Below, one piece after another: positions 19,293 to 36,814 of a stretch of 64,000 nt of DNA (position 1 is the first letter of the stretch; each line of letters begins with the position of its first letter). Under the pieces are notes generated by a model. It had not been told where the DNA came from. It saw only the letters and a program-made list of their open reading frames with translations, and did no database searches. The position numbers and the translations under genes were made by a program. Source of the stretch: Candidatus Tenebribacter burtonii. Its GTDB lineage: Bacteria; Cloacimonadota; Cloacimonadia; Cloacimonadales; TCS61. Where the stretch lies: NCBI GenBank assembly GCA_030765625.1, contig JAVCCF010000109.1, positions 34,991 through 98,990 of the forward strand, read 5' to 3'.

Positions 19293-19605
19293 AAAATAAT
19301 AATTTGATAATAATGAAAATCTGTAAAGCCAAAACTATTATTGATGTAATACGTGATAGAAAAAGCATTAAGATTAATTTTTTAGAATAATAAACATATA
19401 TTGCGGAACAAATATTGCATTTTAGAGATTGAAGGATTGATTTAAATAAAACTCTTTGCTTTTCTTGACAAATATATTGAGTTTCTATTTTGTCAAACCC
19501 ATGCAAACTGTATGTAATTTCTTTATATGCAGTTTGTTAGAAATATATGCAGTATGAAATTTGCACTTATTTCAAAAAAATAAAAAATTAATTATAGGAG
19601 TAATT

Positions 19606-22600
19606 ATGAAAAAATTATTTTTGTTTATTGTAACTGTGCTGTGTTTTACATCACTTTTTGCAAATGCAGCAATACCATTTAATGAGGAATATTTTCTTCC
19701 CAACAGAATAATTGTGGGATTTAAATGGGATACAATTGGCAACAAAGAATGTATTTTGGATTATGAATTTAGCGATGGTATTATTAAAACAGGAATAACA
19801 AGTTTTGATCAACTGTCTGAACAATTTGAATTTGTAGAATTAGCACAGCGAATAGATTTTGTGAAAGATCTGGATTGGAACGAAGATGGACTCTATCCAA
19901 GATGTATTTACAATATCACTCTGGCAAGTAATGATAAAATCAATGAAGCATTGGAAGCACTTGCAGACGATCCAAATATAATCTATGCTGAATTTGAGCC
20001 TGTTTACAAATTTGAGTATGTTCCAAATGATGCATCTTATGATATGCAATGGTATCATCAGTTTATCCAAAGTGAACCTACATGGGATTATACAACAGGA
20101 AGCGAAGATGTTATTATCGGAATTGTAGACTCTGGAATTAAATGGAACCATTCTGATCTGCAGGATAATATCTGGATCAATGAACCTGAACTTAATTCAA
20201 CGTCAGGCGGGAATGTCATGAACATAAATTGGACTGCTGGTACTGTTTCTGGTGGTAATGGAATAGATGATGATGGAAATGGTAAGATAGACGATTGTAT
20301 TGGCTGGAATTTCTATGGTACCCAAAGTAATCAGTCATATCAAGGTTATGCAGATAATTCTCATGGTACTCATGTTGCAGGATGTGCAGGTGCAGTTGGA
20401 GACAACTATATTGGTGTTACAGGTCCAATGATGAACGTTAAACTGATCTCATCTCGCCACTCACCTAATAATTTTGCAACTAATAGTATTTGGTCTGGTG
20501 ATCTTGGAATTAATTATTGTGCAAATTCAGGCGCAGACATTATTAATTGTAGTTTTGGTGGACCTGGTGGAAGTACAACTTATAATAATGCTATTAATAA
20601 CGCCATGAGTCTTGGAGCTATTGTTGTTTGTGCTGCAGGAAATGATAATGAAGATATTGGCATATATGCTCATTATCCGGGTAATGCTACAAACGCAGTA
20701 TGTGTTGCTGCTACCGGTCCTAACAATGATGTAAGAGCTGATTATTCTAATTATGGAACACCTGTTGATGTTTCTGCACCAGGTTCAGGTATATATTCTA
20801 CGGTAATTGGCGGAAGTGGTTACGAAAATTATGATGGTACTTCTATGGCTTCTCCTGTAGCAGCCGGTGTTGCTGGTCTTATTAAATCTATTCATCCTGA
20901 TTTAACTTCTGAAGAACTTAAAGCTAGATTGGAATTAACTTGTGATAATATTGATGCAGTTAATCCTACTTATATTGGTGATTTAGGAACAGGACGGGTG
21001 AATGCTTTTAAGGGAGCTATGTACGACTTGATTCCCAATATTACAATTTCAGCATTTATAGCTGCTGAACAAACTGGTGATGGTGATGGAGTACCTAATC
21101 CGGGTGAGATAGTAAATTTAATAATTAATCTGGAGAATGATGATTTCTGGCTTGATGCAGAAGATGTTACTGCTACTCTCAGTTGTGAGGTTGCCGAAAT
21201 AACGATACTCAATGATGAATCTTTTTATTCTGATATTTCATCAGGATCTAATGGTTGGAATTCCAGTGATCCTTTTAGCTTTGAAACTCCGCCGGAACTT
21301 TCTAATTTCATAATTCCTTTCACCTTGACCGTTTCTGCTAATCAAAGTGCTGCTTGGCCTTATTTGGTGGAACTTGAGATGGTAGTTGAGTTAACGCTGG
21401 CTCAAGCTGGCTGGCCTCTGGTTCTGGAAAGTGTTTCAACATCAAGTGGTGCGATTGTAGATCTTGAAGATGATGGTTCAAAAGAAATAATATTTGGTGA
21501 TTATATGGGCATGATTCATGTTATGCATGCAGATGGAACTCCCGTTGCTCCATTTCCTATTGATACTGGTGCTACAATTGGAGTCGCTGTTGCTGTTGGT
21601 TTAGTAGATTGTGATGAATATGAAGATATCGTAATTGGTAATGATGCTGGTCATGTAATTGCATATGATCATAACGGAAACATTATTTTTGATTATCTAG
21701 CGGGTGGGATTATAAAAAGTAATCCTATGATTGCCGATGTTGATGGAAATGGTTTAATGGAAGTGATAGTTTGTACGTACCCTATGGGTGCAGTTCATAT
21801 TATTAATTCAGATGGAACTTCTTTCCCAAACTTCCCAGCTTCATTAGATAGTCCGGTACTGTCTTCTGCTGCTATTGGAGATTTGAATGATGATGGAAAT
21901 CTTGAAATTCTGGTCATTACATTAACTGGTTCTTTGAATGCTATTTCTTCCAATACGGGTTCCAATCTTACCGGATGGCCCTACGCTCTGGGTTCAGGTT
22001 CAACTCAAGGACCGACACTATCAAATTTAGATTCCGATGTTTATCCTGAAGTTCTTATCGCTACGGTTTCAACTCCAGGCAATGTTGTTGTTATTGACAA
22101 TGATGGTTCTTTAATGCTGGATATAGCAGTTGGTACTCAAGTTCGTACTGCAATTGTAACTGCAGACTTTAATAATAATGAAAACGCAGACATCTGTTTT
22201 ATCGATTTTGACGGAAATGTGCATATTGTAGATCAAGCTGGAAATGATCTTCCAAACTTTCCTGTTAATATTGGTGAATCAGTTGATTCAACACCCGTTA
22301 TTGTTGATATGGACGCAAATGGAACGCTCGATGTTGTATTTGGAGATAATGCTGGATATTTGCACTCAATAGATATTACTGGTAATGAAACCTATGCATT
22401 CCCAATAAATTTAGGGAGTTCCCTCAAAATAGCTCCTGCCGTAGGATATGCAGATAATGACGGAGATATTGAGATACTTATACCAAATCAAATATCTTAC
22501 TATTTGATAGATTACAAAAATACAAGTGGAAATGTACAATGGGCTAATTTTAAACGTAATCCTCAAAGAACTGGTAATGCTCTTAATCCTACGTCAGGAA

Positions 22601-22902
22601 GCCAGCCAGAAGTTGCTCCTGTATTTACGAATACTCTTGGCCAAAATTATCCTAACCCATTCAACCCTGATACTAATATCAGTTTCAGTATTAAAGAAGA
22701 TAGTTTTGTAAGTTTAAAAGTTTACAATACACGTGGTCAACTTGTCAAAACTCTGATTTCAGAGAATTTGTCTGAAGGTGTTCATTTTAGTTCTTGGAAT
22801 GGAAGAGATAATAGCAATAAATCTGTTTCAAGTGGAATTTATTTCTATAAAATGAATTCAATAGATTATTCATCTGTAAAGAAAATGATTCTTTTAAAAT
22901 AA
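19606..22902 (+). CDS. secreted subtilisin-like S8 serine protease with FG-GAP/VCBS beta-propeller and C-terminal sorting domain
   Basis: ATG at 19606 follows aggag. Signal peptide, then the catalytic triad motifs GIVDSGI (Asp), HGTHVAG (His) and GTSMASP (Ser). About eight D-x-D/N-x-D-G FG-GAP-like repeats. The CTD is NYPNPFNPDTNISF...SGIYFYKM...MILLK. Confidence 0.9.
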   Translation: MKKLFLFIVTVLCFTSLFANAAIPFNEEYFLPNRIIVGFKWDTIGNKECILDYEFSDGIIKTGITSFDQLSEQFEFVELAQRIDFVKDLDWNEDGLYPRCIYNITLASNDKINEALEALADDPNIIYAEFEPVYKFEYVPNDASYDMQWYHQFIQSEPTWDYTTGSEDVIIGIVDSGIKWNHSDLQDNIWINEPELNSTSGGNVMNINWTAGTVSGGNGIDDDGNGKIDDCIGWNFYGTQSNQSYQGYADNSHGTHVAGCAGAVGDNYIGVTGPMMNVKLISSRHSPNNFATNSIWSGDLGINYCANSGADIINCSFGGPGGSTTYNNAINNAMSLGAIVVCAAGNDNEDIGIYAHYPGNATNAVCVAATGPNNDVRADYSNYGTPVDVSAPGSGIYSTVIGGSGYENYDGTSMASPVAAGVAGLIKSIHPDLTSEELKARLELTCDNIDAVNPTYIGDLGTGRVNAFKGAMYDLIPNITISAFIAAEQTGDGDGVPNPGEIVNLIINLENDDFWLDAEDVTATLSCEVAEITILNDESFYSDISSGSNGWNSSDPFSFETPPELSNFIIPFTLTVSANQSAAWPYLVELEMVVELTLAQAGWPLVLESVSTSSGAIVDLEDDGSKEIIFGDYMGMIHVMHADGTPVAPFPIDTGATIGVAVAVGLVDCDEYEDIVIGNDAGHVIAYDHNGNIIFDYLAGGIIKSNPMIADVDGNGLMEVIVCTYPMGAVHIINSDGTSFPNFPASLDSPVLSSAAIGDLNDDGNLEILVITLTGSLNAISSNTGSNLTGWPYALGSGSTQGPTLSNLDSDVYPEVLIATVSTPGNVVVIDNDGSLMLDIAVGTQVRTAIVTADFNNNENADICFIDFDGNVHIVDQAGNDLPNFPVNIGESVDSTPVIVDMDANGTLDVVFGDNAGYLHSIDITGNETYAFPINLGSSLKIAPAVGYADNDGDIEILIPNQISYYLIDYKNTSGNVQWANFKRNPQRTGNALNPTSGSQPEVAPVFTNTLGQNYPNPFNPDTNISFSIKEDSFVSLKVYNTRGQLVKTLISENLSEGVHFSSWNGRDNSNKSVSSGIYFYKMNSIDYSSVKKMILLK

Positions 22903-22953
22903 CGTAAAGCAAATATTAAATGTTGGTTTTGCGGCACGAAACAACATATATGC

Positions 22954-22983
22954 AAAAGGGGAAAGCATTAGCTTTCCCCTTTT
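22954..22983 (+). terminator. Rho-independent terminator
   Basis: Perfect 13-bp stem aaaaggggaaagc / gctttcccctttt with loop atta. It ends in a T-run, 52 nt after the S8 gene stop. Confidence 0.85.
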
Positions 22984-23129
22984 GCTATAAAAAGCAAAAA
23001 AATGATGATAATATAACAAAAAGTATTTCCACTAATTTTAGTGTTCGTATTAAGCACTTAATGATATTTTAAGTAAAAATTATTTGACAGACACTAATAT
23101 AATTACATAGATAAAATTGGAGTAAGTTA

Positions 23130-26100
23130 ATGAGAAGAATCTTTTTTCTGTTTTTATCTTTGCTGACATGGGTCAATGCCGTTTCGTTAATAGTAGAAAC
23201 TGCATCATTCACAGATTTTCTGTATGGTTCTACAGAAGATTGTGAATATGACAACTGGATATCTCATATTGTTGAAGGTATTGCGGAGGAAGGTTATAAT
23301 TTATATTCTCCATGGGAAGTACAATCAGATAGTTTTGGAACTTTTGTACTACCGGATGATTTTATGCTTGCACAATGGCAAAATATAATAGATGCTTTTC
23401 TTTTACAAAATTATCTTGCAGTACAGGGTATGTTGGATAGTTACAATTTTCCATATCATGTTGTTGAATTCAATGACACTGATACAGGGAATACTTATTA
23501 CATGTTGCGTGAAAACTTGAATCCAGGATATTATGACACAAATGGGACACCAGGAACTCATGATGATGAGATTGGTTCTTTTGATTATGGTTGGGGACTT
23601 TTCATTCATAATCCGCAATCAATAAATCCGGCAATTATTACAGTTCCACACCCGAATGATGATTTTATAACTCCGGTAATCGGCTATAAGTGCTTTAAAG
23701 ATTGGAACGCAAAATTCTTGCTTATCTCTGGTGCAGGAAGAGAAGTTTTATGGACGGAACAAGGCAATTATTCCAATTCACGATCTTTATGCGATCCTTC
23801 TAGAAATGAAGATGTAGTTTTTAATATAGCTTATAAGTCATTTTGTGATAACGTAAGAGAAAATTTTAATAGACGAGAATTTTCTGCACAGATCCACAGT
23901 TATGATTGGAACAGGCATGATAATCATCCCGACTGTCAGGTCTCGGCAATGCACAATTGCCCGAATCTTCCCATCAGAGATCTCTCTGATCTGCATCTTG
24001 ATATGATAAATGCATCGGAACACATTATGATTCCACAAAATACTATAGGTTCCAATACAGAGGTTTTGCTAAACGATTATTATTCGGTAAATTATTCTCT
24101 TTATGATTTCCTTTTCTACAACTGGGAAGGTGCCCCGTATCCGGTAAATGATAATGTAGACCTTCCGGGATATGGCGAAAATAAGCAAAGAATGTATACT
24201 TATCAAGATTGGAATGATTATGATATTTTTGATCCTTTCTTCCATATTGAAATGGACGAACTTCCGGGTAGCTATGTAGAATCAGAAGAAAACTATCATT
24301 GGTTTTACGGCTTTGATACAGAAACTAATATGTTCCAAATGGATATGCTATTTGATAAAACACTGTCTTATTATTCATATTGGGTAGATGCAATGACAGA
24401 GATCTTGCCGGAAACTTTAGAACTTGATGACGGACTTATACCAACCACTCCACAAAACTTTATTGCATCAAATGTTGATCATAATTCAATTAATCTTCAG
24501 TGGGAACCAATCTCTTCCTTCGATTTTTATACTTACGAAATTCTATTTGCAGATGAACCGATAACGCAAGTTAATCATGTAATTATTAATAGAGAAAATG
24601 TTAGTTATCTCGCCAGTCCTTTACAAAGTGCATACTCTATATTTTCACTTGATATCAATAATAATTATTATTTCCAGATACGAGCAATTGACAGTAATGG
24701 AAATTCTTCACCTTTCTCAGAAGAACTTGAAGTATTTACAGCACCTGCACAAATTGAGGATCTTACAGCAATTGGACTCGATACAAGAGCAAATATCACT
24801 TGGACAACAGGACAACAAAATGGGAATATGGGATTCAATGTCTATAGAAGGCAACACGGTGAAGAATTTATCCAGATAGATAGTTGGACAAATAATTTTT
24901 TATTATCTGGAACTCAAAACCCTGGAGAAGAATATTCATACTTTGATGAAAATTTAGAAAATGGAATAATTTATACATATCAGATATCATCAGAAAATGA
25001 GAGCGGTAATGTATTTCTGTATAACCAAGTGAAAAGCTGTTCTCCAAGTAAACACTTCAATATTTATGTTTCAAATTCCAATTCAACTATAATAGATTCT
25101 ACAACATTTGCAAAAAACCAGTATGCTCATAACTGGCAAGATACCGGTTATGATATTTTAAAAAATATGGAACTGGCAGATGAATATATTTTCTCTGCTT
25201 TTTACGAACAGTATTGGTCTCCAGGCGGTGTTTACTTTCAACAAGAAATTCATAGTAATTATTCACCCTTGGAAAGCTATAAAATATGGAATCTGAGAGT
25301 AAAAACAAATCAAATTGATGAGCCAGTAGAAATATTTGTCAGCCCTAATTTCTTTGAAAATAATGGAAAACTATATCTGTTAAATATACAAACTGATCAG
25401 ATCACAGATATGCTTAATGAAAATCTGATCTTCTTTGCTGAAGATACAATTTATTATGATTTCAGGTTATATTGGGGTGATCTGCATCCTATTGTTGACA
25501 TTACCAATATGCAAAATCAGCTTCTTCAAGGTAGAGACGAGTTATTGATCGAATGGCAATCGAATGTTTATCAATTAATCGAATACTTTGATATCTCATT
25601 GCAGAATGAAGAAACCACTATTGTAATTGCTGATTCTGTGGGTCAAATGGAAGATCAATTTATTTGGGAAACTCCGGAAGATATTGAGATACACAATGCA
25701 CATATTGTTATTGGTATTCACGCTACAGATGGGATAATTTATGAACATACTTCTACCGCATTTTTTGGAATTGTTCCTCTGATTTATATTATTGAATTCA
25801 CCGAAGGCTGGCAGTTGATAACTAATCCGTGGAACAGTGATAATCCATACTATGTTTCAGACATATTTGGACCAAATTCTGATTTGCTTTTTCCTCTTCC
25901 AGACAATAATTTTGAAATTTCTGATATGTTTAATTTTGGAATTGGATACTGGTTGAATGCAGAAGCAGAAGGTTATTTTACCCACTCTAACGCAATCATA
26001 AAAGATAATTATTCTATTTCCCTGAATTCTGGTTGGAATCTTATACCAAATCCATACCTTTGTTCATATAACCCACGCAATTTTGGAATAACAAATTCTG

Positions 26101-27050
26101 GAAGCACCTTCCCATTTGGATATGCTGTGGAAGAAGAACTTATTGCTAATGTTGCTTATGTTTACAGAGAGGGGATATTTGTAGAAACAGATATTATCAA
26201 TCCATACGAAGCATTTTATTTGTATGTAAATGAGGATGGTTATGATAATATGGAATGTATATTCTATCCCTATTATAGTGGATATTATGCTATCCCTGAA
26301 GTAGACTGGGAAATTGCGATTTCAGCAACTCAAACTGATAGTGATGGGTTTATTTTGGGTTGTAGCGAACATGCAACTGATAGTTTCGATAACGTTTACG
26401 ATTTGCCAGAAGCACCCGTAAAACCTGTGGAAAACGGGATTAAAATGTATCTCCCTAAAAATTCTCATCTCGATTCTCTTTATCTTTATTCAGAATTAGA
26501 TCGCGAGATAAAATCATCTTTGGAGACAGGATTACCTGAAAGTAAATTGTGGAATTTTGTTTTAGAAATTCAAATTTTAGATGCTGTAACATTTGAATTC
26601 GATATGTTAGATCTACCGGAAGGTTATTATGCTGATATACAGATCGATGGTAACAGTTGGAATCAGCTGACAAGCGGAAGCTATATTTATTCTATCATTC
26701 CATCTCAAATAGGAGCAATTTCCGGTTCAGTTCTTGTGAGCAATAATGTAGTCACATCAGATGATATAGTCTCTACCAGATATGATTTTATTAATTATCC
26801 AAATCCCTTTAATCCTTCCACCAATATTCACTTTAATGTTCCTGAAGAAGGTAGAGTAGAACTATCTATTTACAATATTAAAGGACAGAAAGTAAAAACT
26901 GTGTGTAAAGAGATTCTACCTGCTGGAAATCATGAATATATCTGGGAAGGGAAAAACAATTCTGATAATACCGTTGCTTCAGGTATATATTTTATCCGTC
27001 TGAACAACGGAGAAAAAACAAAGATCAGAAAAGTATTATTACTTAAATAG
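23130..27050 (+). CDS. large secreted protein (1306 aa) with fibronectin-III-like modules and C-terminal sorting domain
   Basis: Signal peptide, FN3-like segment (PTTPQNFIASNVDHNSINLQWEP...YYFQIRAIDSNGNSS) and CTD NYPNPFNPSTNIHF...SGIYFIRL...VLLLK. N-terminal motifs VPHPNDD, SRSLCDPSRN, IHSYDW and HIEMDE tentatively resemble the FGase/M14-like hydrolase fold. Confidence 0.75.
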   Translation: MRRIFFLFLSLLTWVNAVSLIVETASFTDFLYGSTEDCEYDNWISHIVEGIAEEGYNLYSPWEVQSDSFGTFVLPDDFMLAQWQNIIDAFLLQNYLAVQGMLDSYNFPYHVVEFNDTDTGNTYYMLRENLNPGYYDTNGTPGTHDDEIGSFDYGWGLFIHNPQSINPAIITVPHPNDDFITPVIGYKCFKDWNAKFLLISGAGREVLWTEQGNYSNSRSLCDPSRNEDVVFNIAYKSFCDNVRENFNRREFSAQIHSYDWNRHDNHPDCQVSAMHNCPNLPIRDLSDLHLDMINASEHIMIPQNTIGSNTEVLLNDYYSVNYSLYDFLFYNWEGAPYPVNDNVDLPGYGENKQRMYTYQDWNDYDIFDPFFHIEMDELPGSYVESEENYHWFYGFDTETNMFQMDMLFDKTLSYYSYWVDAMTEILPETLELDDGLIPTTPQNFIASNVDHNSINLQWEPISSFDFYTYEILFADEPITQVNHVIINRENVSYLASPLQSAYSIFSLDINNNYYFQIRAIDSNGNSSPFSEELEVFTAPAQIEDLTAIGLDTRANITWTTGQQNGNMGFNVYRRQHGEEFIQIDSWTNNFLLSGTQNPGEEYSYFDENLENGIIYTYQISSENESGNVFLYNQVKSCSPSKHFNIYVSNSNSTIIDSTTFAKNQYAHNWQDTGYDILKNMELADEYIFSAFYEQYWSPGGVYFQQEIHSNYSPLESYKIWNLRVKTNQIDEPVEIFVSPNFFENNGKLYLLNIQTDQITDMLNENLIFFAEDTIYYDFRLYWGDLHPIVDITNMQNQLLQGRDELLIEWQSNVYQLIEYFDISLQNEETTIVIADSVGQMEDQFIWETPEDIEIHNAHIVIGIHATDGIIYEHTSTAFFGIVPLIYIIEFTEGWQLITNPWNSDNPYYVSDIFGPNSDLLFPLPDNNFEISDMFNFGIGYWLNAEAEGYFTHSNAIIKDNYSISLNSGWNLIPNPYLCSYNPRNFGITNSGSTFPFGYAVEEELIANVAYVYREGIFVETDIINPYEAFYLYVNEDGYDNMECIFYPYYSGYYAIPEVDWEIAISATQTDSDGFILGCSEHATDSFDNVYDLPEAPVKPVENGIKMYLPKNSHLDSLYLYSELDREIKSSLETGLPESKLWNFVLEIQILDAVTFEFDMLDLPEGYYADIQIDGNSWNQLTSGSYIYSIIPSQIGAISGSVLVSNNVVTSDDIVSTRYDFINYPNPFNPSTNIHFNVPEEGRVELSIYNIKGQKVKTVCKEILPAGNHEYIWEGKNNSDNTVASGIYFIRLNNGEKTKIRKVLLLK

Positions 27051-27079
27051 TATTTATTTTCTTTTTCTTCTTGATTAAA

Positions 27080-28756
27080 CTACTTCAACAAAACCATCCT
27101 TTTAGTTTTCTCATAATTTTCTGTTTTAAGTTTATAGAAGTAAATTCCACTTGCAACTGATTTATTACTTTCATCGGTTCCGTTCCAAACAATAGAATGC
27201 TGACCAGCTGGAAGCTGATCACTGAACAGCTGTTTAACTTTTTGCCCTTTCAGGTTAAATATCTCTAGAGTAACCAGTGACGATGTTTGTGTTATTGAAA
27301 AAGAGATTGTTGTTTCAGGATTGAAAGGATTAGGATAATTTCCAATTAGCATATTGGTAGATAAAATTAAATCATCTTCCGTATTTGTATAATCCAATGT
27401 CATTGTTATTGGAATTATCAATTCATCTTGTGATGGATCGTTATGATAAATTACGATTTCAGCAGTATATTGTCCTACCTCAAATCCATCAGGATCAAAA
27501 GAAATGAATATATCTTCATAATCATTTGGCTGAATGATACAGGAATCTAGACTTATTTCCAGCCAACCTGCAAATTGAGATGAATCCATGATTGCCAGTT
27601 CACAGTTCAGATCGGATTCACCGATATTTGAAAGTATCATTATTCCTTCATGGATATGGTTAGAAGTGATGGTGATATCTATGGAAAATGGATTGCAATG
27701 AATTGCTGGAGGTAAAATACATTCCGTAGACAAAGGGATAAGTAACTCAGGTGTATCAGGGTCATTACTGAAAATTGTCAATTCACCAAAATACTGTCCA
27801 AGCTCATCAATTTCAAATTCAATTTCCAGAACTTGTTGTTCTGAATTAGCTAACTCGAATTCTGTAGAACCAAGATAATTAAATCCTTCACCTGCGATAT
27901 TAATATCAGTTATCCAAAGTGTATCCAATCCTGAATTTGAGATTACTAATTGATGTGTATATGTATAATCTGGATAAGTAATCCCAAAATCTAGTTCAAA
28001 TTCTGAAGCAATAATATTTGGTAATGTACTATCAATTAGAAAGTTGAGATATTGTCCCATTACGTATGCTTTAGTATTACCAATAGAGCCATCTGCCATC
28101 GCACCAAAAAAAGAGGAAGATGCTATTGTTCTATAAAGTCTGGGATTATAATAGATACCCCGTACAGCATCATCCTGTGATTGAGCAAAAGCAGTACCAG
28201 AATCAGCTTCAAGTTCATCAAGACCGAAATCAGCATTTGAACCGTAAAGATAATTTAATGAATAACCAGGGAAAATTTCTGTACTATCAGCAATAATTGT
28301 TTGAATTTCAGAATATAAAGGAGATGGAATAGAATTTTCACCCAATCCAAAATAAGGACGCAACAAAGCATGATCACCTGTGCCCAAAATAGCACTTTCA
28401 AGGTAAACTGCTTTACCAGCTTCTAAAAAATCTATAATTTTTTGTATGTCTTCAGGTCCGACCGGATCTGGAGGAGTCCATCCTCAACCAGCGCACCAAA
28501 TGCCGGCAGTAGCAAATATAATATCATATCCAGAAAGGTCATCTGCCAGTAAAGTATCAACCTCTGAAGTAAAGCCATTTGCAGATAATGCAGTTTGTAT
28601 TCCTGCCTCTAAACCTACATATATCCATGGGTCCTCGGGATTGGCTATCTCTGATCCACCATCCCTATCCCAAATAAGTATATTCTGAGCAGGAAGTGCA
28701 ATTATGTATAAAACAAATATCAGAAAAAATATTTTTATTCTCATTTCCAACCTCAT
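27080..28756 (-). CDS. predicted selenocysteine-containing secreted protein (CxxU motif) with C-terminal sorting domain; in-frame TGA at 28484-28486
   Basis: Track ORFs 28484..28756 (signal peptide) and 27080..28387 (CTD NYPNPFNPETTISF...SGIYFYKL...MVLLK) are in the same frame. They are separated only by one TGA: ...YDIIFATAGIWCAG-TGA-GWTPPDPVGPEDIQKIIDFLEAGKAVYLESAILGTGDH. A SECIS-like hairpin follows. Confidence 0.7.
28450..28473 (-). promoter_or_regulatory. candidate bacterial SECIS hairpin
   Basis: Minus-strand RNA CUCCAGAUCC-GGUC-GGACCUGAAG forms a 10-position stem (8 Watson-Crick pairs, 2 mismatches) with a GGUC tetraloop. The stem starts 10 nt after the UGA and the loop occupies nt 21-24 after it. 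Confidence 0.6.
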
Positions 28757-28869
28757 AAACCAATTTATTTTTTATTATGCAATAAATATACCAAAAACCG
28801 TCTGTAATTGACGAATGATTAACAAGAAAATTAGTTCTTTTTTAATAAAAATAACTTAATAAGTTTTCC

Positions 28870-31800
28870 TTACTTCATTAAAATCATTTTTCTTGAAGCA
28901 GTATAATTTGCAGTTTTCATTTTATAGAAATAAATCCCGGATGAAACTGACTTACCTCTATCATCTTTCCCATTCCAAACGATCTGATGATTTTTTGCAG
29001 GTAATAGGCCATTGATAAGCGTTTTCACTTTTTGACCTCTTAAATTAAATATCTCAATTTTCACATTGCCTGCTTCTTTAAGGGAAAAAGAAATAGTAGT
29101 TGTTGGGTTAAATGGATTTGGAAAATTAGAATTAAGTTTGTTCATGATCGGAATTATTGTATTATCGTTGCTATCAGTTGTATTTGAATAATGAATATCA
29201 TCAATGTACCAGCCTTCACCAGTGATAAGATTTGCACTACCGAACACAAATCTGATCTTTGCAGTTCCGGAATAATCAGATAGATCTAATATAACTTGTT
29301 CCCAGTCAAATTCACCTGCAAATACTTCAGTGCCTTCTTCGAAAGGGGATGCGGGATTATTCATTGTCACGCTGGGATAACCACCTAAAGGTTCTATCTG
29401 CTCCCATTCTCCACCATTTACAGAGATTTCGATAAGTCCACCATCCCAGGTAATTGGGCCATTTGAACCAACATCCATCCAATGATAAAAAGTAACTTGT
29501 GCTCCGGGGAAAACATCAATCTCCGGCATAACCAGGGCAGCGTAAATTAGATTGGAATAATATATTGTACCGGTTCCACCACATTTCATTGAATAATTTC
29601 CATCTATGGTATTATTGCGGAAATCATCCAAATGCCATTCATCAATAAAACCATTTGAAAGTACCATGTGTTCCCAGCCTGTTGCTCCATTTTCAAAATC
29701 GAAGGCATAAAATCCAATTGGCAACCGTAAAATGGATTGAAATGTAAACTCACTACTATCAATTACATATACATCTATGTCTGCAAAATATTCTACAGGA
29801 CTGTTTTCATCAACATCAATGATGAATGGTACTGTTGTAGTCTCTATAGAATCAGGAGCAATTGAAGCTATTAGATCAAATCCGCTAACAGACACATAAG
29901 GGTCTGATGTATATATTAAATTTTGGGTATCATAAGCAAAACCATTTCCAATATTATGAAAACTTAAAAAAATCTCACCATGCTCTCCAGGATCGAGTAT
30001 TTGATCGCTTCCATCTAATACATTAAGATTATAATCCCAGTATTCTATAACTGGAGCATTACAGTTAAGTTCAAATCCACTTATCCAGCTTACACCATTC
30101 GAAGTGACTTCAATCTCAAATTCAATTGTACTATTATCTTCTATTAAAGAAAGTAATTCGATTGTGAACGCATCAGTGTAAGTTATATTTGATGAAGCCG
30201 GAATTTGTGGTCCATTCATAGTATCATTAATTATTATAATTTTATCTGAATCTGTTGTAAGAATTGCTGTAACGGTATTTCCTGTTGGCTGCATTCCAAT
30301 ATTCTGTAAAGTAAGATCTATCTGAAGAGTATCAAGAGACTGATATGAATCTTCTGCATGAACTCCAAGCTCAACATAATCTACATCATAACAGATAACA
30401 TACATATCCGGAGAAATTATCGCTACTTCCGCAGAATAACGATAATGATTTTGTTTTGTAACTGTAACCTTCATTATATTATTTGGAATCTGCTGTGGTA
30501 TATCAATTTCTAATGGTGCCCCAGTTCCCAATACAGATGCTATTACTTCTCCATTCACAGTAAGACCTATCAATGCCCCTTCATCAGCAGCAACGGTAAA
30601 TGATTCCAAGCCTGCCATTAATTCATCAGCATGACTTACAGTAAGTTGTTGCGGCATTTCCGAATGAACAGTAGAAAATGCACATCCATGATGGTGAAAA
30701 AGATTATAAGTAACTTCTTTATTATTAGAGTTATATGGCCATGAGGATTGTTGTAGGAAATATTTGCCGGCTGCATTTGCAAATGCAGGTCTTATCCAAT
30801 CTGATTCCGAAGGAGCACTACCAAATTGAGGGAGAAAATTTTTCCACATGTTATCGTACATTCCCCACACAAATGTATCATTTACGAAAGAATAGGAAAC
30901 TTCTGAAGCTGCAATAAGCCCAAGAGCACCTTGTTCATGTCTGTGAAAAAGTTCTGCAAAAGAGTTTTGTGGAGCATTGTATTTTCCAGTTAGGCAGTTA
31001 ATAGAAAACACAAAAACCAGATCATCATTATTTAAACCACTTAAATTTCCAGTATCATAATCTGGTTCACCCCAACCTGTAACGCCACCATGGTCTCTAT
31101 GTTGAAGCATGAATGCACCACTATTGATCGCATTATTTATATCAATGGCATTTCCACCTGACCAACCACCCAATTCGGAAGGTAAAGCTGGAATGTAGTT
31201 TAGTCCATTTGGACCAAAAACATTTAATACAGTATATGTATTTGTAGCTGTTGACCATGGATCAACGTCAGGATTCCCAGCATATATAGCATTTATCCGA
31301 ACTTGATCTTTTCCCAATTCATTATGCCAGAATCCACCAACGGTTTCCGAACATATTTGGAACCAGCGTTCTGTTTGCCAGCCAAGTGCTGTAACAGGAT
31401 GATCATAAAAATTCTGATTTATGGATGGATTCCTTTCATAATCGAGAACTTTACCTATCATAGTAGAAAGTTGATCTTCGTCCTGTACAGTCATTCTTGC
31501 CAGTACAACATCCGGCATATCATTATTATTTACATCTGCATAAATATTATCAGAGACACAGTAATTATTCCAAATAGGTGAAACGATAGAGCTCCCGGTT
31601 GTTCCATAATCACCTAAAAGCAAAACAGCTGAAGGAGGGACATCCCAATTATTATAGGCATCATTTATGTAACCTTCTATTGCGGTTACGGTATTGCCTC
31701 CAATTTCAGTTGTTGTAACAACACCTGTTCGAATACCTTGTTCATTTCTGAAAATGCTTAGAGAGTCTGCCCATTGTGTAAAAATTGGATCATCAGGGGA

Positions 31801-32529
31801 GATGATAATGTAGTCATAATCTTCTGTTCTGTTATTGGAAATTGTTTGCTGAGAAGCTGGTAAAGAACCATAATTCAGGAACACATCACTTAATATACTG
31901 TCCCACCAAATGTTTCGTAATCTATCTTCACCAAATTTTTCTGAACCACCCTTAAAGCTAATTCTAATTCTGATATCTTTATAAATTACAAGTTCTTTTG
32001 TAACAGGGTTATATTGGAATGGAGTTATGCCAAGGATGGCTGCATCTACTCCACGAATTTTTGTAATTTCAGATAATTGAATGGGGGTTTCCGGATAAAA
32101 AGAATCAATTGCATAAACTTCTTTATTTTTGGAATATTCTAAAGATCCGGTCTCTGTATCAAGTGGAATTCTAAATGCCGGTGCAATATTAATATCTTTG
32201 ATAATTTCTTTCCTTGAAGAAAGAATTTCCAATTCAACCCCAGCACCCATTGGTATAGCAAAGTATCTTCCAAAACCAGGAAGATCAGGCATGCCTTCAT
32301 CGTTAGGTAAAAAGCTTCCTGCAAGAATCGGTTTGATCATCTTATTGCCATTAACTTCAATTTCTTCTAAACCAATTTCATGTACTGAGTATTCAATAAT
32401 TAACTCTGTTTTAGAAGCATTGATCAGATTCAATCCTTCCTTGTTCCAGTTATCTGTGAAATTTATAACAGTGGAATTCAGAAAGCTAAAAATACTAATG
32501 ACTGTAAAAAAACTAATTATTTTTTTCAT
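28870..32529 (-). CDS. secreted C25 (gingipain-like) cysteine peptidase with C-terminal sorting domain
   Basis: Signal peptide. Catalytic His region MLQHRDHGGVTGWGEPDY and Cys region LVFVFSINCLTGKYNAPQNSFAELF align with the gingipain segments GHGSETAWG and FIFDVACVNGDF...FAEAL. CTD NFPNPFNPTTTISF...SGIYFYKM...MILMK. Confidence 0.85.
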   Translation of the reverse strand: MKKIISFFTVISIFSFLNSTVINFTDNWNKEGLNLINASKTELIIEYSVHEIGLEEIEVNGNKMIKPILAGSFLPNDEGMPDLPGFGRYFAIPMGAGVELEILSSRKEIIKDINIAPAFRIPLDTETGSLEYSKNKEVYAIDSFYPETPIQLSEITKIRGVDAAILGITPFQYNPVTKELVIYKDIRIRISFKGGSEKFGEDRLRNIWWDSILSDVFLNYGSLPASQQTISNNRTEDYDYIIISPDDPIFTQWADSLSIFRNEQGIRTGVVTTTEIGGNTVTAIEGYINDAYNNWDVPPSAVLLLGDYGTTGSSIVSPIWNNYCVSDNIYADVNNNDMPDVVLARMTVQDEDQLSTMIGKVLDYERNPSINQNFYDHPVTALGWQTERWFQICSETVGGFWHNELGKDQVRINAIYAGNPDVDPWSTATNTYTVLNVFGPNGLNYIPALPSELGGWSGGNAIDINNAINSGAFMLQHRDHGGVTGWGEPDYDTGNLSGLNNDDLVFVFSINCLTGKYNAPQNSFAELFHRHEQGALGLIAASEVSYSFVNDTFVWGMYDNMWKNFLPQFGSAPSESDWIRPAFANAAGKYFLQQSSWPYNSNNKEVTYNLFHHHGCAFSTVHSEMPQQLTVSHADELMAGLESFTVAADEGALIGLTVNGEVIASVLGTGAPLEIDIPQQIPNNIMKVTVTKQNHYRYSAEVAIISPDMYVICYDVDYVELGVHAEDSYQSLDTLQIDLTLQNIGMQPTGNTVTAILTTDSDKIIIINDTMNGPQIPASSNITYTDAFTIELLSLIEDNSTIEFEIEVTSNGVSWISGFELNCNAPVIEYWDYNLNVLDGSDQILDPGEHGEIFLSFHNIGNGFAYDTQNLIYTSDPYVSVSGFDLIASIAPDSIETTTVPFIIDVDENSPVEYFADIDVYVIDSSEFTFQSILRLPIGFYAFDFENGATGWEHMVLSNGFIDEWHLDDFRNNTIDGNYSMKCGGTGTIYYSNLIYAALVMPEIDVFPGAQVTFYHWMDVGSNGPITWDGGLIEISVNGGEWEQIEPLGGYPSVTMNNPASPFEEGTEVFAGEFDWEQVILDLSDYSGTAKIRFVFGSANLITGEGWYIDDIHYSNTTDSNDNTIIPIMNKLNSNFPNPFNPTTTISFSLKEAGNVKIEIFNLRGQKVKTLINGLLPAKNHQIVWNGKDDRGKSVSSGIYFYKMKTANYTASRKMILMK

Positions 32530-32644
32530 ATTTACCTCAATTTAATTAAATAAGTACTTGATTATTTTTAGGAAAAGAGCGTCAATAAATTTTGATATCA
32601 AATATAACAACAAGATTTATAGTCTGGTTATTTATATCTTTGGT

Positions 32645-34363
32645 TTAATGTCTTCTCTTTTTGTGTGATTTATCACTTCCGGATTTTTTATCATAATTCT
32701 TGTGGGGAGTTCCGGAACGGAAGTTCCTCTTTGGGCTGGATTTCTCTTTCCCTTTTGCTTCTACAATTAATGGTTTTTTATTTCTGCCTTTTCCACGGAA
32801 TACTTCGATGATATGTTCTGCTTCTTCAAAAGGAACATTAGCAAAAGAGAAATTATCATAAATTTCGACATTGCGAATAAGGTGAGAATCAACCATTGCT
32901 TCTTCCTGAATTAACTTAACCAGTTTAGGCGGGTCTATTTTGTCTTTACGTCCCAAGGCTATGAACAAACGTGTAATTCCTTCTTGATCAGGAGAATTAT
33001 CAGGATGTCTCCTGGAAGTAGTTTTATGTTTTTTGCCAGGTTCGTGGATCTCAGTGTATTTTTCAGGTGAGAATTCATCTTTATAGGCATGAGTTAAAAG
33101 TGCAGCTATTACCTGATCTGCCGGATATTGTGCCAAAAGTTCATTTGACACATGCATATTTTCATCAAATTTACCTGCAACAATTATTTCATTGATCTTT
33201 TCAACTATTCTTTTACGCTTAAGTTTGATAAGCTGCTTAACTTTTGGAAGTGATTCTTTACGAATTTCAGATTTGGAAATCCGCTGGATATTCATTAATT
33301 TACGGTATTCAGATGGTGTGATAAAAGTAATTGCTGTTCCCTGTTTTCCAGCTCTTCCAGTTCTTCCAATACGGTGTATATAACTTTCTGGATCTTGCGG
33401 AAGTGAATAGTTTAAAACGTGTGTTAGATTATTAATGTCAATTCCTCTGGCGGCAACATCGGTAGCTACCAGAATAGTTACACGTTTCTTCTTAAATTGG
33501 CTTAAGATGCGTTCCCGCTGAGCCTGAGAGATATCACCATGTAACGATGCTACATCATAACCACGATCAATTAAAGCATTAGCCAAATGATCTGTTTTAA
33601 GTTTTGTACGGCAAAAAACCAGAGCATAAAATTCTTTTTCCACATCGATAATTCGGCAGAGTGCTTCAAACTTATCAGAAGTTCGTACTTCAAAGTAGAT
33701 CTGATCGGTTAAATTTACTGTTAGTTGCTCCGATTGAACTTTTATTAATTCGTATTCACCCATAAATTTCTCTGCCAACTGCACGATTCTTTGAGGCATT
33801 GTAGCGGAAAACAATAAAACTCTTTTTTCTTCCGGTGTTTTAGAAAGAATAAGTTCAATGTCTTCTATAAATCCCATATTCAGCATTTCATCTGCTTCAT
33901 CTAAAACCATAAATTGAAGGTCATCAAGTTTTAATGTTCCACGGTTCAAATGATCTATCAGCCGACCTGGGGTTCCTACTACAATTTCTACACCTTTTTT
34001 AAGTCTGCGGAATTGCTGATCGTAAGATTGTCCTCCGTAAACAGGCAGAATCCCAATACTTCTACCTCCGCGGTAAGAATTCATTTCCTCGGCAACCTGT
34101 ACTGCAAGTTCGCGAGTGGGAGCTAAAACTAATGCCTGCACTTTTCCTGTGTTTTCTGTTATGTTATCCATTATCGGCAGACCAAAAGCAGCAGTTTTTC
34201 CAGTTCCGGTTTGTGCTTGTCCTACAATATCTTTCTCGTTTTTCAGTAGTAACGGTATCGTTAATTTCTGAATGGGGGAAGGTTCTTCAAATCCTTTTTT
34301 ACTGATTGCCAACAGCGACTTTTCCGATAATCCCAAATTTTCGAATTTTTCTAAATTACTCAT
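32645..34363 (-). CDS. deaD: DEAD-box ATP-dependent RNA helicase (DeaD/CsdA-like)
   Basis: Q-motif region FEEPSPIQ, Walker A AQTGTGKT, DEAD (VLDEADEM), SAT and HRIGRTGRAG motifs, with a basic C-terminal tail. The start is placed at Met12 (34363, MSNLEKFENLG). Confidence 0.9.
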   Translation of the reverse strand: MSNLEKFENLGLSEKSLLAISKKGFEEPSPIQKLTIPLLLKNEKDIVGQAQTGTGKTAAFGLPIMDNITENTGKVQALVLAPTRELAVQVAEEMNSYRGGRSIGILPVYGGQSYDQQFRRLKKGVEIVVGTPGRLIDHLNRGTLKLDDLQFMVLDEADEMLNMGFIEDIELILSKTPEEKRVLLFSATMPQRIVQLAEKFMGEYELIKVQSEQLTVNLTDQIYFEVRTSDKFEALCRIIDVEKEFYALVFCRTKLKTDHLANALIDRGYDVASLHGDISQAQRERILSQFKKKRVTILVATDVAARGIDINNLTHVLNYSLPQDPESYIHRIGRTGRAGKQGTAITFITPSEYRKLMNIQRISKSEIRKESLPKVKQLIKLKRKRIVEKINEIIVAGKFDENMHVSNELLAQYPADQVIAALLTHAYKDEFSPEKYTEIHEPGKKHKTTSRRHPDNSPDQEGITRLFIALGRKDKIDPPKLVKLIQEEAMVDSHLIRNVEIYDNFSFANVPFEEAEHIIEVFRGKGRNKKPLIVEAKGKEKSSPKRNFRSGTPHKNYDKKSGSDKSHKKRRH

Positions 34364-34740
34364 ATATTTCCTTATACTTTTTAATATTCGCAACAATCAG
34401 AAAAATAAGAAATGTTTCTGAAAATTACGTAAACCAAGAATTATGAGTGGGTTATATTAGCAAGGTTTTTGTTTTTTAGTCACGAATGAACATAGATAAA
34501 AATTGATAAAGTATCAAAACAATTATCTTCTTGTTCGTTTTTCTTAATACGATAATCAGTATAAAGTACAGAAGTGTTGGATATAAAAAACAATAGCTAT
34601 AAACCAATCGAATTTATACTCAACTTTTGTATTTTCAGGATTGATAAGCAATGTAACAGTTATGAGTTTTTAAATATTAAATACTCCTTGCTTAAATTCA
34701 AAAGGATGATAAAAATGTGTATTATAAATCAGGAGGCGAA

Positions 34741-36657
34741 ATGAAAAAATTGTTTTTACTTTCATTATTGGTGTTACATATGTTATGTTTAGGTCAGAAT
34801 TGGAGCTGGAATGTAGGCAATGGAGGTAATCCTTCCAGGAATTGTCAGGCCGAAAATGTTTTGTCTCCTCTCACCGAAAACGATGTGTTATGGGAAGGTA
34901 GCGCGGTTTTCTCTTACTGGCCCCATCAACCCTTTACAGAAGAGAATATAGTTGTTACCGACCGTACATTCAATATGAGTAATACACTGCACGGTACATG
35001 GATAGTGGCTTATGATATTTTGACCGGTGACACATTGTGGATTGTTGATCTACCTGTGGATTTTCCAAGCTCAGACTGGAGGAATCGTGTTTGCGGAACA
35101 AATGATGGTGTGATTTATGCAACTAGATCTGGGAATACGAATGCCTCATATTTGCATGCTCTGGATATAAGTGATGGTTCAATAATCTGGACTTCTACAA
35201 CTTTGGTTGATATGTCATCCACTGAATGTGTTAATTTTGCGGAAAATGGTGATCTTATCGTAGGAAATTTTTATAATATTTGCCGGATAAATGCTCAGGA
35301 TGGCTCGTTGATCTGGGAAGAAACTCGCAACAGTCCCACTTCTGGTGGTAGTGAAGTTGCAGTGTTTGGTAATAATGTTTATAGCTGGGCAGCTGGTGGA
35401 CCTAGAATTGTAGTTCACGATATTGATACAGGAGCTTTTCTATATGAAAGTGAAGGAATAGGTGGTGGATTTGTTCAGCAATTGGGTTGTCTGGTTGGAC
35501 CAGATGGAATAGTATATGCACCGAGAACCCAAAATAATGCAATCTCAGATTCACTGGTTGCATTTACCGATACTGGCAGCTCATTAGAACGAATGTGGCA
35601 AATAAGTTTAGGATATGTTCCTTTTGCTACTTTTGGAGTGGATCTGGAGGGAAATATTTATTCCTACACACCGGATTACAGAATTATTCACATCGATTCT
35701 CATAGTGGAGAAACATTGTCTCAAACTAGTAGTATAGCTCAAGAAATTCCAGTTACTAGATCTTATTTTATGGGCGGGACTCTATCTATTCCGCGCGGAG
35801 AAAATACTGTTAGGATTTCTTATGTTGATCAAAATAGCAGAGAACTAACTATTTTGGATACATCTATTGTGATAGGGAATTCTGCGAATGGCACTGTGTC
35901 ACCTCAAGCAGCAGTTGATGCTGAAGGATATTTATATGTTTCCAATTATCAGAATACAGTTTACTGTTTTGAAAGTAATCTGGATATTATCTGGCAGGAC
36001 ACTTTTGACCGCCCGGATGGACCAGCAATTTCTATGGATGGGCATTTGATAATATGTGCTGACAATTATGAAATGAAAGTTTATGAAGGACGTGGAAATG
36101 CAGTTGTTAATGGTTCAATTTTTGGGAATGTGACCCTGACAGGAGGAACAGGTAATGTTGAAGAAGTACAAGTAATTGCAGGTATTTACTTTACAAATCC
36201 TTCTTCTTCTGGTTTCTACACAATTGAGCTTCCCCCAGGTATTTATGATATAACAGCAGACTTAGAAGGTTATCAGTCACAAACAGTCGAGAATGTTACT
36301 ATATATAGCGGTCAAGCGACCGGTGAGATTAATTTTGATCTGGATCTACTTTCGGGAAATGACCAAAATCTAGAATTGATAGATATTCCATTATCTAATT
36401 ATCCTAATCCTTTTAATCCTATCACAACAATAAATTTTTCCATCTCGGAAAGATTAGAGAACATTGAGTTAACTGTTTATAATTTGAAAGGACAGAAAGT
36501 AAAACAACTTATAAATGACCAGCTTCCAGTTGGACAGCATTCTGTTATTTGGAATGGAACGGATGAAAATGAAAAGCAAATTAGCTCAGGAATATATTTT
36601 TACAGGCTTAAAACAAATTATGGGAATATTCAAAAAAGAATGTTGCTAATAAAGTAA
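34741..36657 (+). CDS. secreted PQQ-like beta-propeller protein with carboxypeptidase-regulatory-like domain and C-terminal sorting domain
   Basis: ATG at 34741 follows aggagg. Signal peptide, repeated G-x-hhW / DG-x-hY propeller blades, a GFYTIELPPGIYDITADLEGYQ segment (CarboxypepD_reg-like) and CTD NYPNPFNPITTINF...SGIYFYRL...MLLIK. Confidence 0.75.
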   Translation: MKKLFLLSLLVLHMLCLGQNWSWNVGNGGNPSRNCQAENVLSPLTENDVLWEGSAVFSYWPHQPFTEENIVVTDRTFNMSNTLHGTWIVAYDILTGDTLWIVDLPVDFPSSDWRNRVCGTNDGVIYATRSGNTNASYLHALDISDGSIIWTSTTLVDMSSTECVNFAENGDLIVGNFYNICRINAQDGSLIWEETRNSPTSGGSEVAVFGNNVYSWAAGGPRIVVHDIDTGAFLYESEGIGGGFVQQLGCLVGPDGIVYAPRTQNNAISDSLVAFTDTGSSLERMWQISLGYVPFATFGVDLEGNIYSYTPDYRIIHIDSHSGETLSQTSSIAQEIPVTRSYFMGGTLSIPRGENTVRISYVDQNSRELTILDTSIVIGNSANGTVSPQAAVDAEGYLYVSNYQNTVYCFESNLDIIWQDTFDRPDGPAISMDGHLIICADNYEMKVYEGRGNAVVNGSIFGNVTLTGGTGNVEEVQVIAGIYFTNPSSSGFYTIELPPGIYDITADLEGYQSQTVENVTIYSGQATGEINFDLDLLSGNDQNLELIDIPLSNYPNPFNPITTINFSISERLENIELTVYNLKGQKVKQLINDQLPVGQHSVIWNGTDENEKQISSGIYFYRLKTNYGNIQKRMLLIK

Positions 36658-36691
36658 TTGATTAAAAAAATATTATACAAACAAGTATATT

Positions 36692-36725
36692 CGTCACATA
36701 GCTTCTACTGTGTGACGTTTTTTTT
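36692..36725 (+). terminator. Rho-independent terminator
   Basis: Stem cgtcaca / tgtgacg (7 bp) with a 12-nt loop, followed by tttttttt. It lies 35 nt after the stop at 36657. Confidence 0.7.
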
Positions 36726-36814
36726 ATAATGGTAAACTCAAACTACAAAGAAAAAATTGGGAATATTAATAGAAAAAGTTATAATATTATGATTAAGAAA
36801 AATTTGGGGTAAAA

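Follow-up and report, generated by a model that had tools for sequence, protein, structure and literature searches.

Does the TGA that separates two neighbouring open reading frames (ORFs) in the genome of Candidatus Tenebribacter burtonii end a short gene, or is it the selenocysteine (Sec) codon of a longer one? The question is raised by a 64-kb stretch of contig JAVCCF010000109.1 (hereafter the window, in whose coordinates all positions are given), where the feature is read on the minus strand and where a mechanical ORF listing cuts the gene into one piece of 90 amino acids (aa) at 28484..28756 and one of 435 aa at 27080..28387. A first-pass annotation of the window had joined the two pieces into a secreted selenoprotein. 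Translation of the minus strand from 28756 to 27080 gives 559 codons whose sole internal stop, codon 91, is a TGA (28486..28484) flanked as in YDIIFATAGIWCAG-*-GWTPPDPVGPEDIQK, with GIWCAG-TGA-GWTPP as the immediate residues, and apart from this TGA the gene contains no further stop and no frameshift. Here, we report comparative evidence that the two pieces very probably form one gene with the UGA of codon 91 as a selenocysteine codon, and that a large, unannotated family of secreted cell-surface selenoproteins in all likelihood exists in the Cloacimonadota.

The predicted product would be a 558-residue pre-protein composed of a signal peptide, a class I glutamine-amidotransferase-like (GATase1-like) domain of ~220 residues, two immunoglobulin-like (Ig-like) domains and a type A sorting domain of type IX secretion systems (T9SS). 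The architecture of the gene is the same in the orthologues L001-L024. Its start codon is ambiguous and lies either at 28756 (MRLEM...) or at 28744 (MRIKI...), the second being the one used by most orthologues. Decoding would follow the standard bacterial route, in which SelB and tRNA-Sec read a hairpin and decode the UGA of codon 91 as selenocysteine; the signal would be a short hairpin 14-31 nucleotides (nt) 3' of the UGA, with a 7-bp stem and an RGUY loop.

The UGA column in homologues

An initial protein search returned seven relatives, all from Candidatus Cloacimonadota and each called from an internal Met after the stop. On the contigs of all seven an ORF of 85-89 aa is followed by a longer ORF in the same frame, and a single TGA stands at the identical column, GIWC(SG/GA/GD)-TGA-GWTPP. 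A scan of one genome per GTDB species, for which only the post-TGA part in the form of a 7-sequence alignment served as query and which therefore sampled the close clade, yielded 17 loci, of which two bear the title 'uncultured bacterium' and the other 15 that of Candidatus Cloacimonadota or Tenebribacter. Upstream DNA is available for 16 of these species loci, each of which carries TGA at the column, at protein identities to the window of 54-93%, and in each of the 16 a signal peptide and a conserved 65-residue segment lie upstream of it; the conserved flanks are (G/P)(I/L/P)WC-x-x before and G(W/A)(T/I)PP after the column. TGA is found there also in six metagenome loci (L006-L008, L027, L029 and L030), the last three of which represent distant subfamilies at ~32-34% identity: LGLYCVG-TGA-GMTPPG in L027, which has a 340-aa N-terminal extension, GIYCVG-TGA-GTTPPG in L029 and GIFCSG-TGA-GLTPPG in L030. 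Protein identity before the TGA resembles that after it, and synonymous codon identity is ~0.55 in both parts; the protein has thus been maintained while synonymous sites were free to change.

A profile of the pre-TGA segment gathered 97 clusters at 90% identity, all of them ORFs of 71-107 aa. About 90 of these finish with [W/Y]C-x-[G/S/A/D] right before the stop, and in 96 of the 97 a Cys lies at most three residues before it, most of those without the CxxU spacing having it one or two residues before. N-terminal fragments such as P0188, P0196 and P0204 end in ...LGWC-stop, ...GWFC-stop or ...MDCG-stop; the occurrence of CU or CxU instead of CxxU suggests that the spacing of Cys and predicted Sec may be plastic within the family. 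With the post-TGA segment, an exhaustive HMMER search of 1.84 billion representatives gave 101 matches (representatives at 50% identity), 93 of which start downstream of the column, 74 of these within 30 residues. The column is crossed by eight representatives: four have Cys, three are without the whole motif and one (P0030) has an apparent Trp. The four Cys homologues carry CxxC (CLSC in P0013, CTGC in P0016, CIGC in P0023 and CFSC in P0083), and the codon at the column is TGC in all three loci whose DNA was read (L026, L032 and L033). Among motif-bearing homologues Cys is the only sense residue at the column. Trp at the column in P0030 and P0206 was considered as evidence against Sec and rejected, since the DNA has TGA. 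For these two (L030:251-1285 and L031:117-1148) the gene caller evidently chose code 4 on short AT-rich contigs, and such 'Trp homologues' in public collections can mislead Sec/Cys column checks.

The reading of the two ORF pieces as a single gene is borne out by their common frame, by Cys homologues that run unbroken across the column and by a modelled domain that spans it (see below). Site-specific recoding of UGA to Sec is supported by the conserved TGA and by the TGA/Cys column. The first-pass annotation had named four possible refutations beforehand, and on three of them the homologues side with recoding: the halves are never separate genes in relatives but only mis-called fragments, motif-bearing members have TGA or Cys at the column and never a non-Cys residue, and the TGA is genuine rather than a read error, as it is seen in 16 of 16 independent species genomes. 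The residue inserted at codon 91 is thus, as far as sequence comparison can tell, most probably Sec.

That TGA acts as a real stop elsewhere in the window, as had also been claimed, was confirmed for five of the 36 long ORFs, one of which is an oxaloacetate-decarboxylase-like gene whose Pfam match reaches its last residues. The orthologue L022 itself ends in TGA, and L023 and L024 end in TAG. Since TGA is an ordinary terminator in the window and in L022, the code is standard and recoding is site-specific. A Cloacimonetes-type tRNA-Sec with an unusual 7+5 acceptor/T stem has been described (PMC5330540).

The hairpin downstream of the UGA

The hairpin that the first-pass annotation had described as a 10-position stem capped by GGUC is present at 28473..28450, CUCCAGAUCC GGUC GGACCUGAAG, with its loop at +21..+24 after the TGA. 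It covaries among relatives, but the lower three of its 10 stem positions are unsupported, pair 18-39 of alignment A1 being unpaired in six of seven sequences. The RNAalifold consensus from a 21-sequence alignment of the close clade consists of a 7-bp stem and a 4-nt RGUY loop. In alignment A4, 95.7% of the cells of the hairpin are paired and three of the seven pairs are changed on both sides; the covariation score of 0.268 in this alignment was reached by none of 500 shuffles, and controls in which the partners were slid by 1-3 columns scored 0.047 or less with 11-47% paired. Some of the compensatory switches fall on synonymous third positions of Pro and Ser codons (CCA/UCU, CCG/UCU, CCU/UCA and CCC/UCG), so that protein constraint cannot account for them. 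In the window the stem has one A.C mismatch. Codon CCU (Pro98) at 28456..28458 on the minus strand corresponds to Ser (UCU, UCA or UCG) in relatives, except for Ala in Tenebribacter davisii, and the Pro98 change makes the sole A.C mismatch at that stem pair among 20 distinct sequences.

In the three distant subfamilies the stems are unrelated in sequence (CGGGUU/AACCCG in L027, GGUGUC/GGCACC in L029 and GGAGU/ACUCC in L030), and GU occupies +22/+23 after the UGA in the loops of all four subfamilies, the main clade included. The loops of relatives are AGUU, AGUC, CGUGA or GUU as against GGUC in the window. According to the consensus model of the bacterial selenocysteine insertion sequence (bSECIS), the apical loop has 3-9 nt with a G in its first two positions, the upper stem has 4-16 bp, the distance from UGA to loop is 16-37 nt and the energy is -7.5 kcal/mol or lower (PMC13188914). 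With a 7-position stem and 20 nt between UGA and loop, the window hairpin agrees with the loop, stem, G-position and spacing rules of this model. The hairpins together make a small, clean bSECIS collection from a phylum with an atypical tRNA-Sec, which is useful for the training of SECIS predictors.

Fold, export and alternative readings

No Pfam or NCBIfam family covers the first 245 residues, whether in the joined protein, the Cys homologue P0016 or 108 alignment members, and a sequence profile search of the PDB with the N-domain gave chance hits only. The fold was taken from AlphaFold2, run on P0016 (residues 1-255; alignment of 108 rows), and it was this Cys homologue and not the window protein itself that was modelled and compared. 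The model (mean predicted local distance difference test, pLDDT, 92.6; predicted template modelling score, pTM, 0.88) is one alpha/beta domain across the column; strand 78-82 and helix 100-111 are connected by a loop of 17 residues (pLDDT ~80) that holds the CxxC. Foldseek matched the model in the PDB to class I glutamine-amidotransferase-like domains with probability 1.00 and E from 7e-8 to 1e-5, namely STM3548 (E 7e-8), GATase subunits, ThuA-like proteins, the GIFT domain of IFT52 (template modelling score, TM, 0.58) and glycosidase accessory domains, at 10-15% identity. The first-pass annotation had called the redox pattern thioredoxin-like, which is right for the CxxU motif (about 90 of 97 clusters) but not for the fold, which is GATase1-like/flavodoxin-like with the motif not at the N-terminus of helix 1; neither the joined protein nor the alignment members had any thioredoxin-family Pfam match.

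Enzymes with the class I glutamine-amidotransferase-like fold have their active sites along the sheet's C-terminal edge. Judging by how the secondary-structure elements are ordered and by the known topology of GATase1, and not by superposition, we infer that the C/U loop comes after strand 3 and would correspond to the oxyanion loop of amidotransferases, and that the nearly invariant Glu of Y-I/L-E-G/S after strand 4 would hold the position of the nucleophile elbow. The C-x-x-U pair would accordingly belong to the loop behind the third beta-strand, on this same edge of the sheet. Conservation extends also to WDxD, which comes after strand 1, and to an Asp that is invariant. An active amidotransferase triad of Cys-His-Glu was not found, there being no Pfam GATase match and no invariant His in the family alignment.

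The export signal and T9SS tail of the earlier reading hold. The signal peptide has a hydrophobic core followed by A-Q-(N/S/Q) and is kept in 16 of 16 orthologues read and in sampled N-terminal fragments; in the window its end falls, by inspection, between ALPA and QN. The sorting domain scores above curated cut-offs, with 33.7 bits for PF18962 (cut-off 27) and 44 for TIGR04183 (cut-off 23), and PF13860 also gives 44 bits. Several neighbouring genes of the window bear the same sorting tail, which implies a working T9SS. The protein would leave the cytoplasm by the Sec translocon and then pass the T9SS, with anchoring at the surface probable. As to its function, we tentatively suggest a surface thiol/disulfide oxidoreductase with a selenylsulfide C88-x-x-U91, working with the cysteine peptidase of family C25 that is encoded beside it. 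The Cys88/Sec91 pair would form a selenylsulfide redox centre on a GATase1-like scaffold, and the oxidoreductase would keep the catalytic Cys of the C25 peptidase reduced or open the disulfides of protein substrates, which would serve these amino-acid-fermenting bacteria.

Several observations weigh against a selenoprotein of this kind. Neither selA, selB, selD nor tRNA-Sec was found in the 64-kb window among ORFs of suitable size or by ARAGORN, which reported no tRNA in it. The minimum free energy (MFE) of the window hairpin is -4.6 to -7.0 kcal/mol depending on its boundaries, just short of -7.5 kcal/mol, as computed with energy parameters other than those of bSECISearch. Most relatives reach -7.5 kcal/mol (L009, L017, L019 and L021 have -9.3 to -11.7 kcal/mol; L016 has -2.1 and L030 -6.9). 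The low value in the window is due to the A.C mismatch, the Ser-to-Pro codon change having brought the stem below the usual bSECIS threshold. A 66-nt fold around the hairpin is no better than shuffles (z = 0.11), and with the single-sequence fold unremarkable the structural argument rests on comparison with relatives, which puts the feature well above chance. Rfam at gathering thresholds gave no match in the whole window, and extra synonymous-site conservation around the hairpin was sought and none was found. Cys forms, too, keep a hairpin-like sequence at the SECIS position, which is a perfect 6-bp stem in L032 and a weaker one in L033, and the PPG-x-VG peptide motif could by itself give rise to some of the pairing. 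In L032 (P0023, GCA_021108395.1) the 48 nt after the TGC at WCIGC contain CGGUGC-GGUCG-GCACCG; the hairpins of Cys forms are possibly fossil SECIS elements, in L032 after a recent Sec-to-Cys switch. The N-terminal fragment P0178, 93% identical to window residues 5-90, ends GIWYAG-stop, where the Tyr (presumably TAC) in place of the CxxU Cys reflects natural variation with loss of the resolving Cys or else an error of sequencing. Finally, we know of no electron donor for a cell-surface redox protein.

The same facts bear on other readings of codon 91. Readthrough of the UGA as Trp, Cys or Gly, whether by a suppressor or near-cognate tRNA, by a Cys-inserting variant of the Sec machinery or under a partly reassigned code, would agree with public gene callers that translated P0030 and P0206 through the TGA as Trp under code 4 and with the Sec machinery not being seen in the window, and DNA cannot tell the identity of the inserted residue. 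It is nevertheless improbable: these 'Trp' forms carry TGA in their DNA, TGA is a normal terminator in the window and at the end of L022 (TAG in L023 and L024), and motif-bearing homologues have only Cys as sense residue at the column. The Cys 1-3 residues upstream is moreover the classic Sec/Cys signature, the covarying hairpin presents its loop G at the distance of the bSECIS model, and the phylum has its own type of tRNA-Sec (PMC5330540). Termination at the TGA, which would yield a secreted peptide of ~67 residues and leave the downstream ORF as a separate gene or untranslated, is very improbable, even if all public annotations give two ORFs or the downstream ORF alone and the window hairpin is weak when taken singly. 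The downstream part is without a signal peptide of its own, yet its T9SS tail requires export; protein-level conservation (GWTPPDPVG.ED.Q..I.FL) continues from the TGA up to the first ATG downstream, the called starts of the downstream ORF vary between genomes, and an unbroken chain in Cys homologues and one compact modelled domain extend across the column. A pseudogene, or a TGA produced by sequencing or assembly error, has practically no probability left, as nothing beyond the in-frame stop itself speaks for it and the comparative data already refute it: the same TGA recurs in 97 protein clusters and in more than 20 independent assemblies that come from different studies, no second stop and no frameshift is present, and the protein is kept on both sides while synonymous sites change.

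Another alternative concerns function only, in that the Sec could bind a metal or metalloid, or could serve a GATase1-type hydrolase or peptidase (compare families C26, C56 and S51) as its catalytic nucleophile. This would fit the class I glutamine-amidotransferase-like fold, the conserved acidic residues found together with the motif (the Glu of Y-I-E-G, the invariant Asp and those of WDxD), the one relative without the CxxU Cys (P0178) and the catalogued precedent of a GATase-type selenoprotein with Sec at the nucleophile (GxUxG, NF004836; PMC13188914). It appears unlikely, since 96 of 97 clusters have a Cys no more than three residues upstream of Sec and the Cys forms have CxxC, a pattern typical of dithiol/selenylsulfide centres. 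The C/U loop, to judge by secondary-structure order, would follow strand 3 and not stand at the nucleophile elbow, where a Glu is found, no invariant His is available for a triad, and there is no NCBIfam match to NF004836.

Genomic setting and known systems

The selenoprotein gene lies 113 nt downstream of the C25 peptidase gene on the same strand and converges on the gene of a 1306-aa fn3/T9SS protein (Table 1). One terminator-like and one promoter-like site were seen between the C25 and selenoprotein genes, and such matches occur at chance frequency. The C25 neighbour was considered as a PorU sortase and rejected, the match reaching 83 bits against a cut-off of 420 and being limited to the sorting tail. 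Most of the main-clade loci for which upstream DNA exists have a C25 gene as immediate upstream neighbour (L001-L003, L007, L009-L012, L014-L016, L018, L021 and L022), and C-terminal remnants only are found in L004/L013, L008 and L023; the fn3 protein is downstream in about half of the main-clade loci. The distant paralogue L029 (YCVG-U) lies directly downstream of its own, different C25 gene, and no C25 match was found upstream of L024 (WCEG-U). These two divergent paralogues come from one metagenome assembly, ERZ25073602, which indicates that genomes can hold two paralogous pairs, and the pairing of selenoprotein and C25 peptidase looks like a duplicated two-gene module. T9SS type A cargo genes are densely clustered in the region 19561..37822. 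In Antarctic Cloacimonadota, gingipain-like C25 peptidases have been counted among the enzymes of extracellular degradation, in a study that is silent on selenium (PMC8542988).

Table 1. Positions of the predicted selenoprotein gene, its parts and nearby genes in the window
Feature	Position	Strand	Remarks
Complete predicted selenoprotein gene	27080..28756	-	558 codons + TAG stop 27082..27080; one internal predicted Sec-UGA; alternative ATG 28744
Signal peptide, residues 1-23 (MRLEMRIKIFFLIFVLYIIALPA then QN)	28688..28756	-	sequence inspection
Cys88 codon TGC	28493..28495	-	Cys of the predicted CxxU pair, gives C-A-G-U
In-frame TGA, codon 91, predicted selenocysteine codon	28484..28486	-	conserved column, TGC in Cys forms
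bSECIS-like hairpin CAGAUCC-GGUC-GGACCUG	28453..28470	-	+14..+31 after UGA; loop 28463..28460; RNAalifold consensus, covariation
N-terminal alpha/beta domain, residues 24-245, spans TGA	28022..28687	-	class I glutamine-amidotransferase-like (AlphaFold, Foldseek)
First Ig-like domain (DUF1573 / choice-of-anchor D type), residues ~246-340	27737..28021	-	PF07610 26.2 bits vs cut-off 26.1; weak NF012200
Second Ig-like domain (HYDIN/VesB/CFA65-like), residues ~352-450	27407..27703	-	PF22544, E 6e-14
T9SS type A sorting domain (FlgD_ig / Por_Secre_tail), residues 474-558	27083..27337	-	PF18962, PF13860, TIGR04183
Gingipain-family peptidase, 1219 aa (Propeptide_C25 + Peptidase_C25 + T9SS tail)	28870..32529	-	Pfam
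S8 subtilase with FG-GAP/beta-propeller	19561..22902		T9SS cargo
Giant fn3 protein	23130..27050		T9SS cargo
DEAD-box helicase gene	32645..34396		interrupts the T9SS cargo cluster
PQQ-like beta-propeller	34717..36657		T9SS cargo
Second secreted selenoprotein candidate	36815..37822	+	signal peptide MKFTLIIMLMILSLSLFASQ, TGA 36917..36919, hairpin, T9SS tail

The second candidate, read on the plus strand, has its TGA in the context VVGEVFTIDYGC-U-GTDNFARSAL, followed after ~15 nt by the hairpin UGCAC-GGA-GUGCA. Of its homologues, 38 of 39 begin just past the column, and the one that spans it (P0206, L031, 70% identity) has TGA and the same hairpin. A Cys form was not found, and tblastn of the candidate against the fetched loci of relatives gave no matches. 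Its similarity to NF045500 (Omp28-related selenoprotein, GOS_C) is weak (34 bits against a cut-off of 200), with the motif CU as opposed to UxxC in that family. The organism probably decodes UGA at this gene too, and the hallmarks of the second candidate support the decoding of UGA as Sec and the export of the products.

As a wider proposal, made with reserve, Cloacimonadota may export selenoproteins via the T9SS, among them the first cell-surface selenoenzyme on a GATase-like scaffold, which could reduce disulfides, or serve as an activator, outside the cell in a Sec-dependent manner, paired with C25 proteases in the dismantling of extracellular protein. If this is true, the second candidate of the window would make T9SS-sorted selenoproteins a lineage-wide feature and not a single case. 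In public databases roughly 100 clusters carry either a Trp mistranslation or labels that break them into two unrelated fragments ('hypothetical' or 'T9SS sorting domain'), and the Sec codon, once recognised, restores from them a full-length family. This family is unusual in its T9SS routing, in its fold, which was not earlier linked to a CxxU centre, and in its near-exclusive use of Sec (93 representatives starting after the column against four Cys forms). A selenol placed outside the cell on strict anaerobes raises the question of selenium chemistry there and of the source of reducing power. The C25 pairing suggests a role in extracellular protein degradation, which is relevant to anaerobic digesters and anoxic lakes rich in Cloacimonadota.

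A review of May 2026 catalogues 119 prokaryotic selenoprotein families with model accessions, and comparison by domain or motif gave no obvious match among them (PMC13188914). No model of NCBIfam release 20 matches the N-domain. Full-text literature searches returned no paper meaningfully linking selenoproteins with type IX secretion and nothing on Cloacimonadota selenoproteins beyond the tRNA-Sec study.

The first-pass annotation had ascribed a GGUC loop to the fdhF element of E. coli, and the folded element indeed has GGUC as apical loop at +19..+22, compared with +21..+24 in the window; the 46-nt query is a 100% match to annotated fdhF in 5,419 of 5,426 E. coli genomes. Both genes have an in-frame UGA with a small hairpin inside the coding region just downstream. 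The fdhF element is a long bulged helix of -14.2 kcal/mol, whereas that of the window is a shorter and weaker 7-position stem with an A.C mismatch and no bulged U, and the 7+5 acceptor/T stem of the phylum's tRNA-Sec is a further difference from fdhF-type decoding (PMC5330540). The predicted CxxU redox selenoproteins of the 119-family catalogue (for example SelW-like, AhpD-like, GrdA, DUF1858 and Trx7/PDZ) resemble the window family in the alternation of CxxU with CxxC, in a Sec at a loop of the probable active site and in the logic of their discovery in silico. They differ from it in fold, which in the catalogued CxxU families is thioredoxin-like or AhpD-like and here GATase1-like, and the window protein is predicted to be T9SS-exported, and among the representatives of its family there are more than 20 Sec forms for each Cys form.

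Closer in domain type is the CTP synthase C-terminal-related selenoprotein (NF004836), which like the window protein has its Sec in a class I glutamine-amidotransferase-type domain. The NF004836 family is cytoplasmic, unlike the secreted window protein, which has no NCBIfam match to that model at E <=1. In NF004836 the elbow motif is GxUxG, with Sec in place of the nucleophile Cys (PMC13188914), whereas the window protein has C-x-x-U-G-W in the preceding loop and, by the assignment above, probably Glu at the elbow. The best structural matches are non-catalytic GATase1-like domains, namely STM3548 (2gk3), ThuA-like (4e5v), the IFT52 GIFT domain (5fms) and GH42/GH164 accessory domains, with TM of ~0.5-0.58 and, as in the window family, no recognisable Cys-His-Glu triad; they are only 10-15% identical to the window family and no relation is detectable at the sequence level. 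A CxxC or CxxU loop is not known from any of these domains.

Exported selenoproteins have already been predicted, namely a TonB-dependent receptor with FCYxU (NF049945), an MtrB/PioB barrel (NF041027) and the Omp28-related GOS_C (NF045500) (PMC13188914). These show that bacterial selenoproteins can exit the cytoplasm, and the FCYxU receptor shares the CxxU motif. Their folds and families are unrelated to the window protein, and the review text describes none of them as T9SS cargo; the window family, unlike them, has a type A sorting domain and Ig-like spacers. Both kinds, the exported selenoprotein and the GATase-type selenoprotein, are thus known, and the gene described here represents a new family within them.

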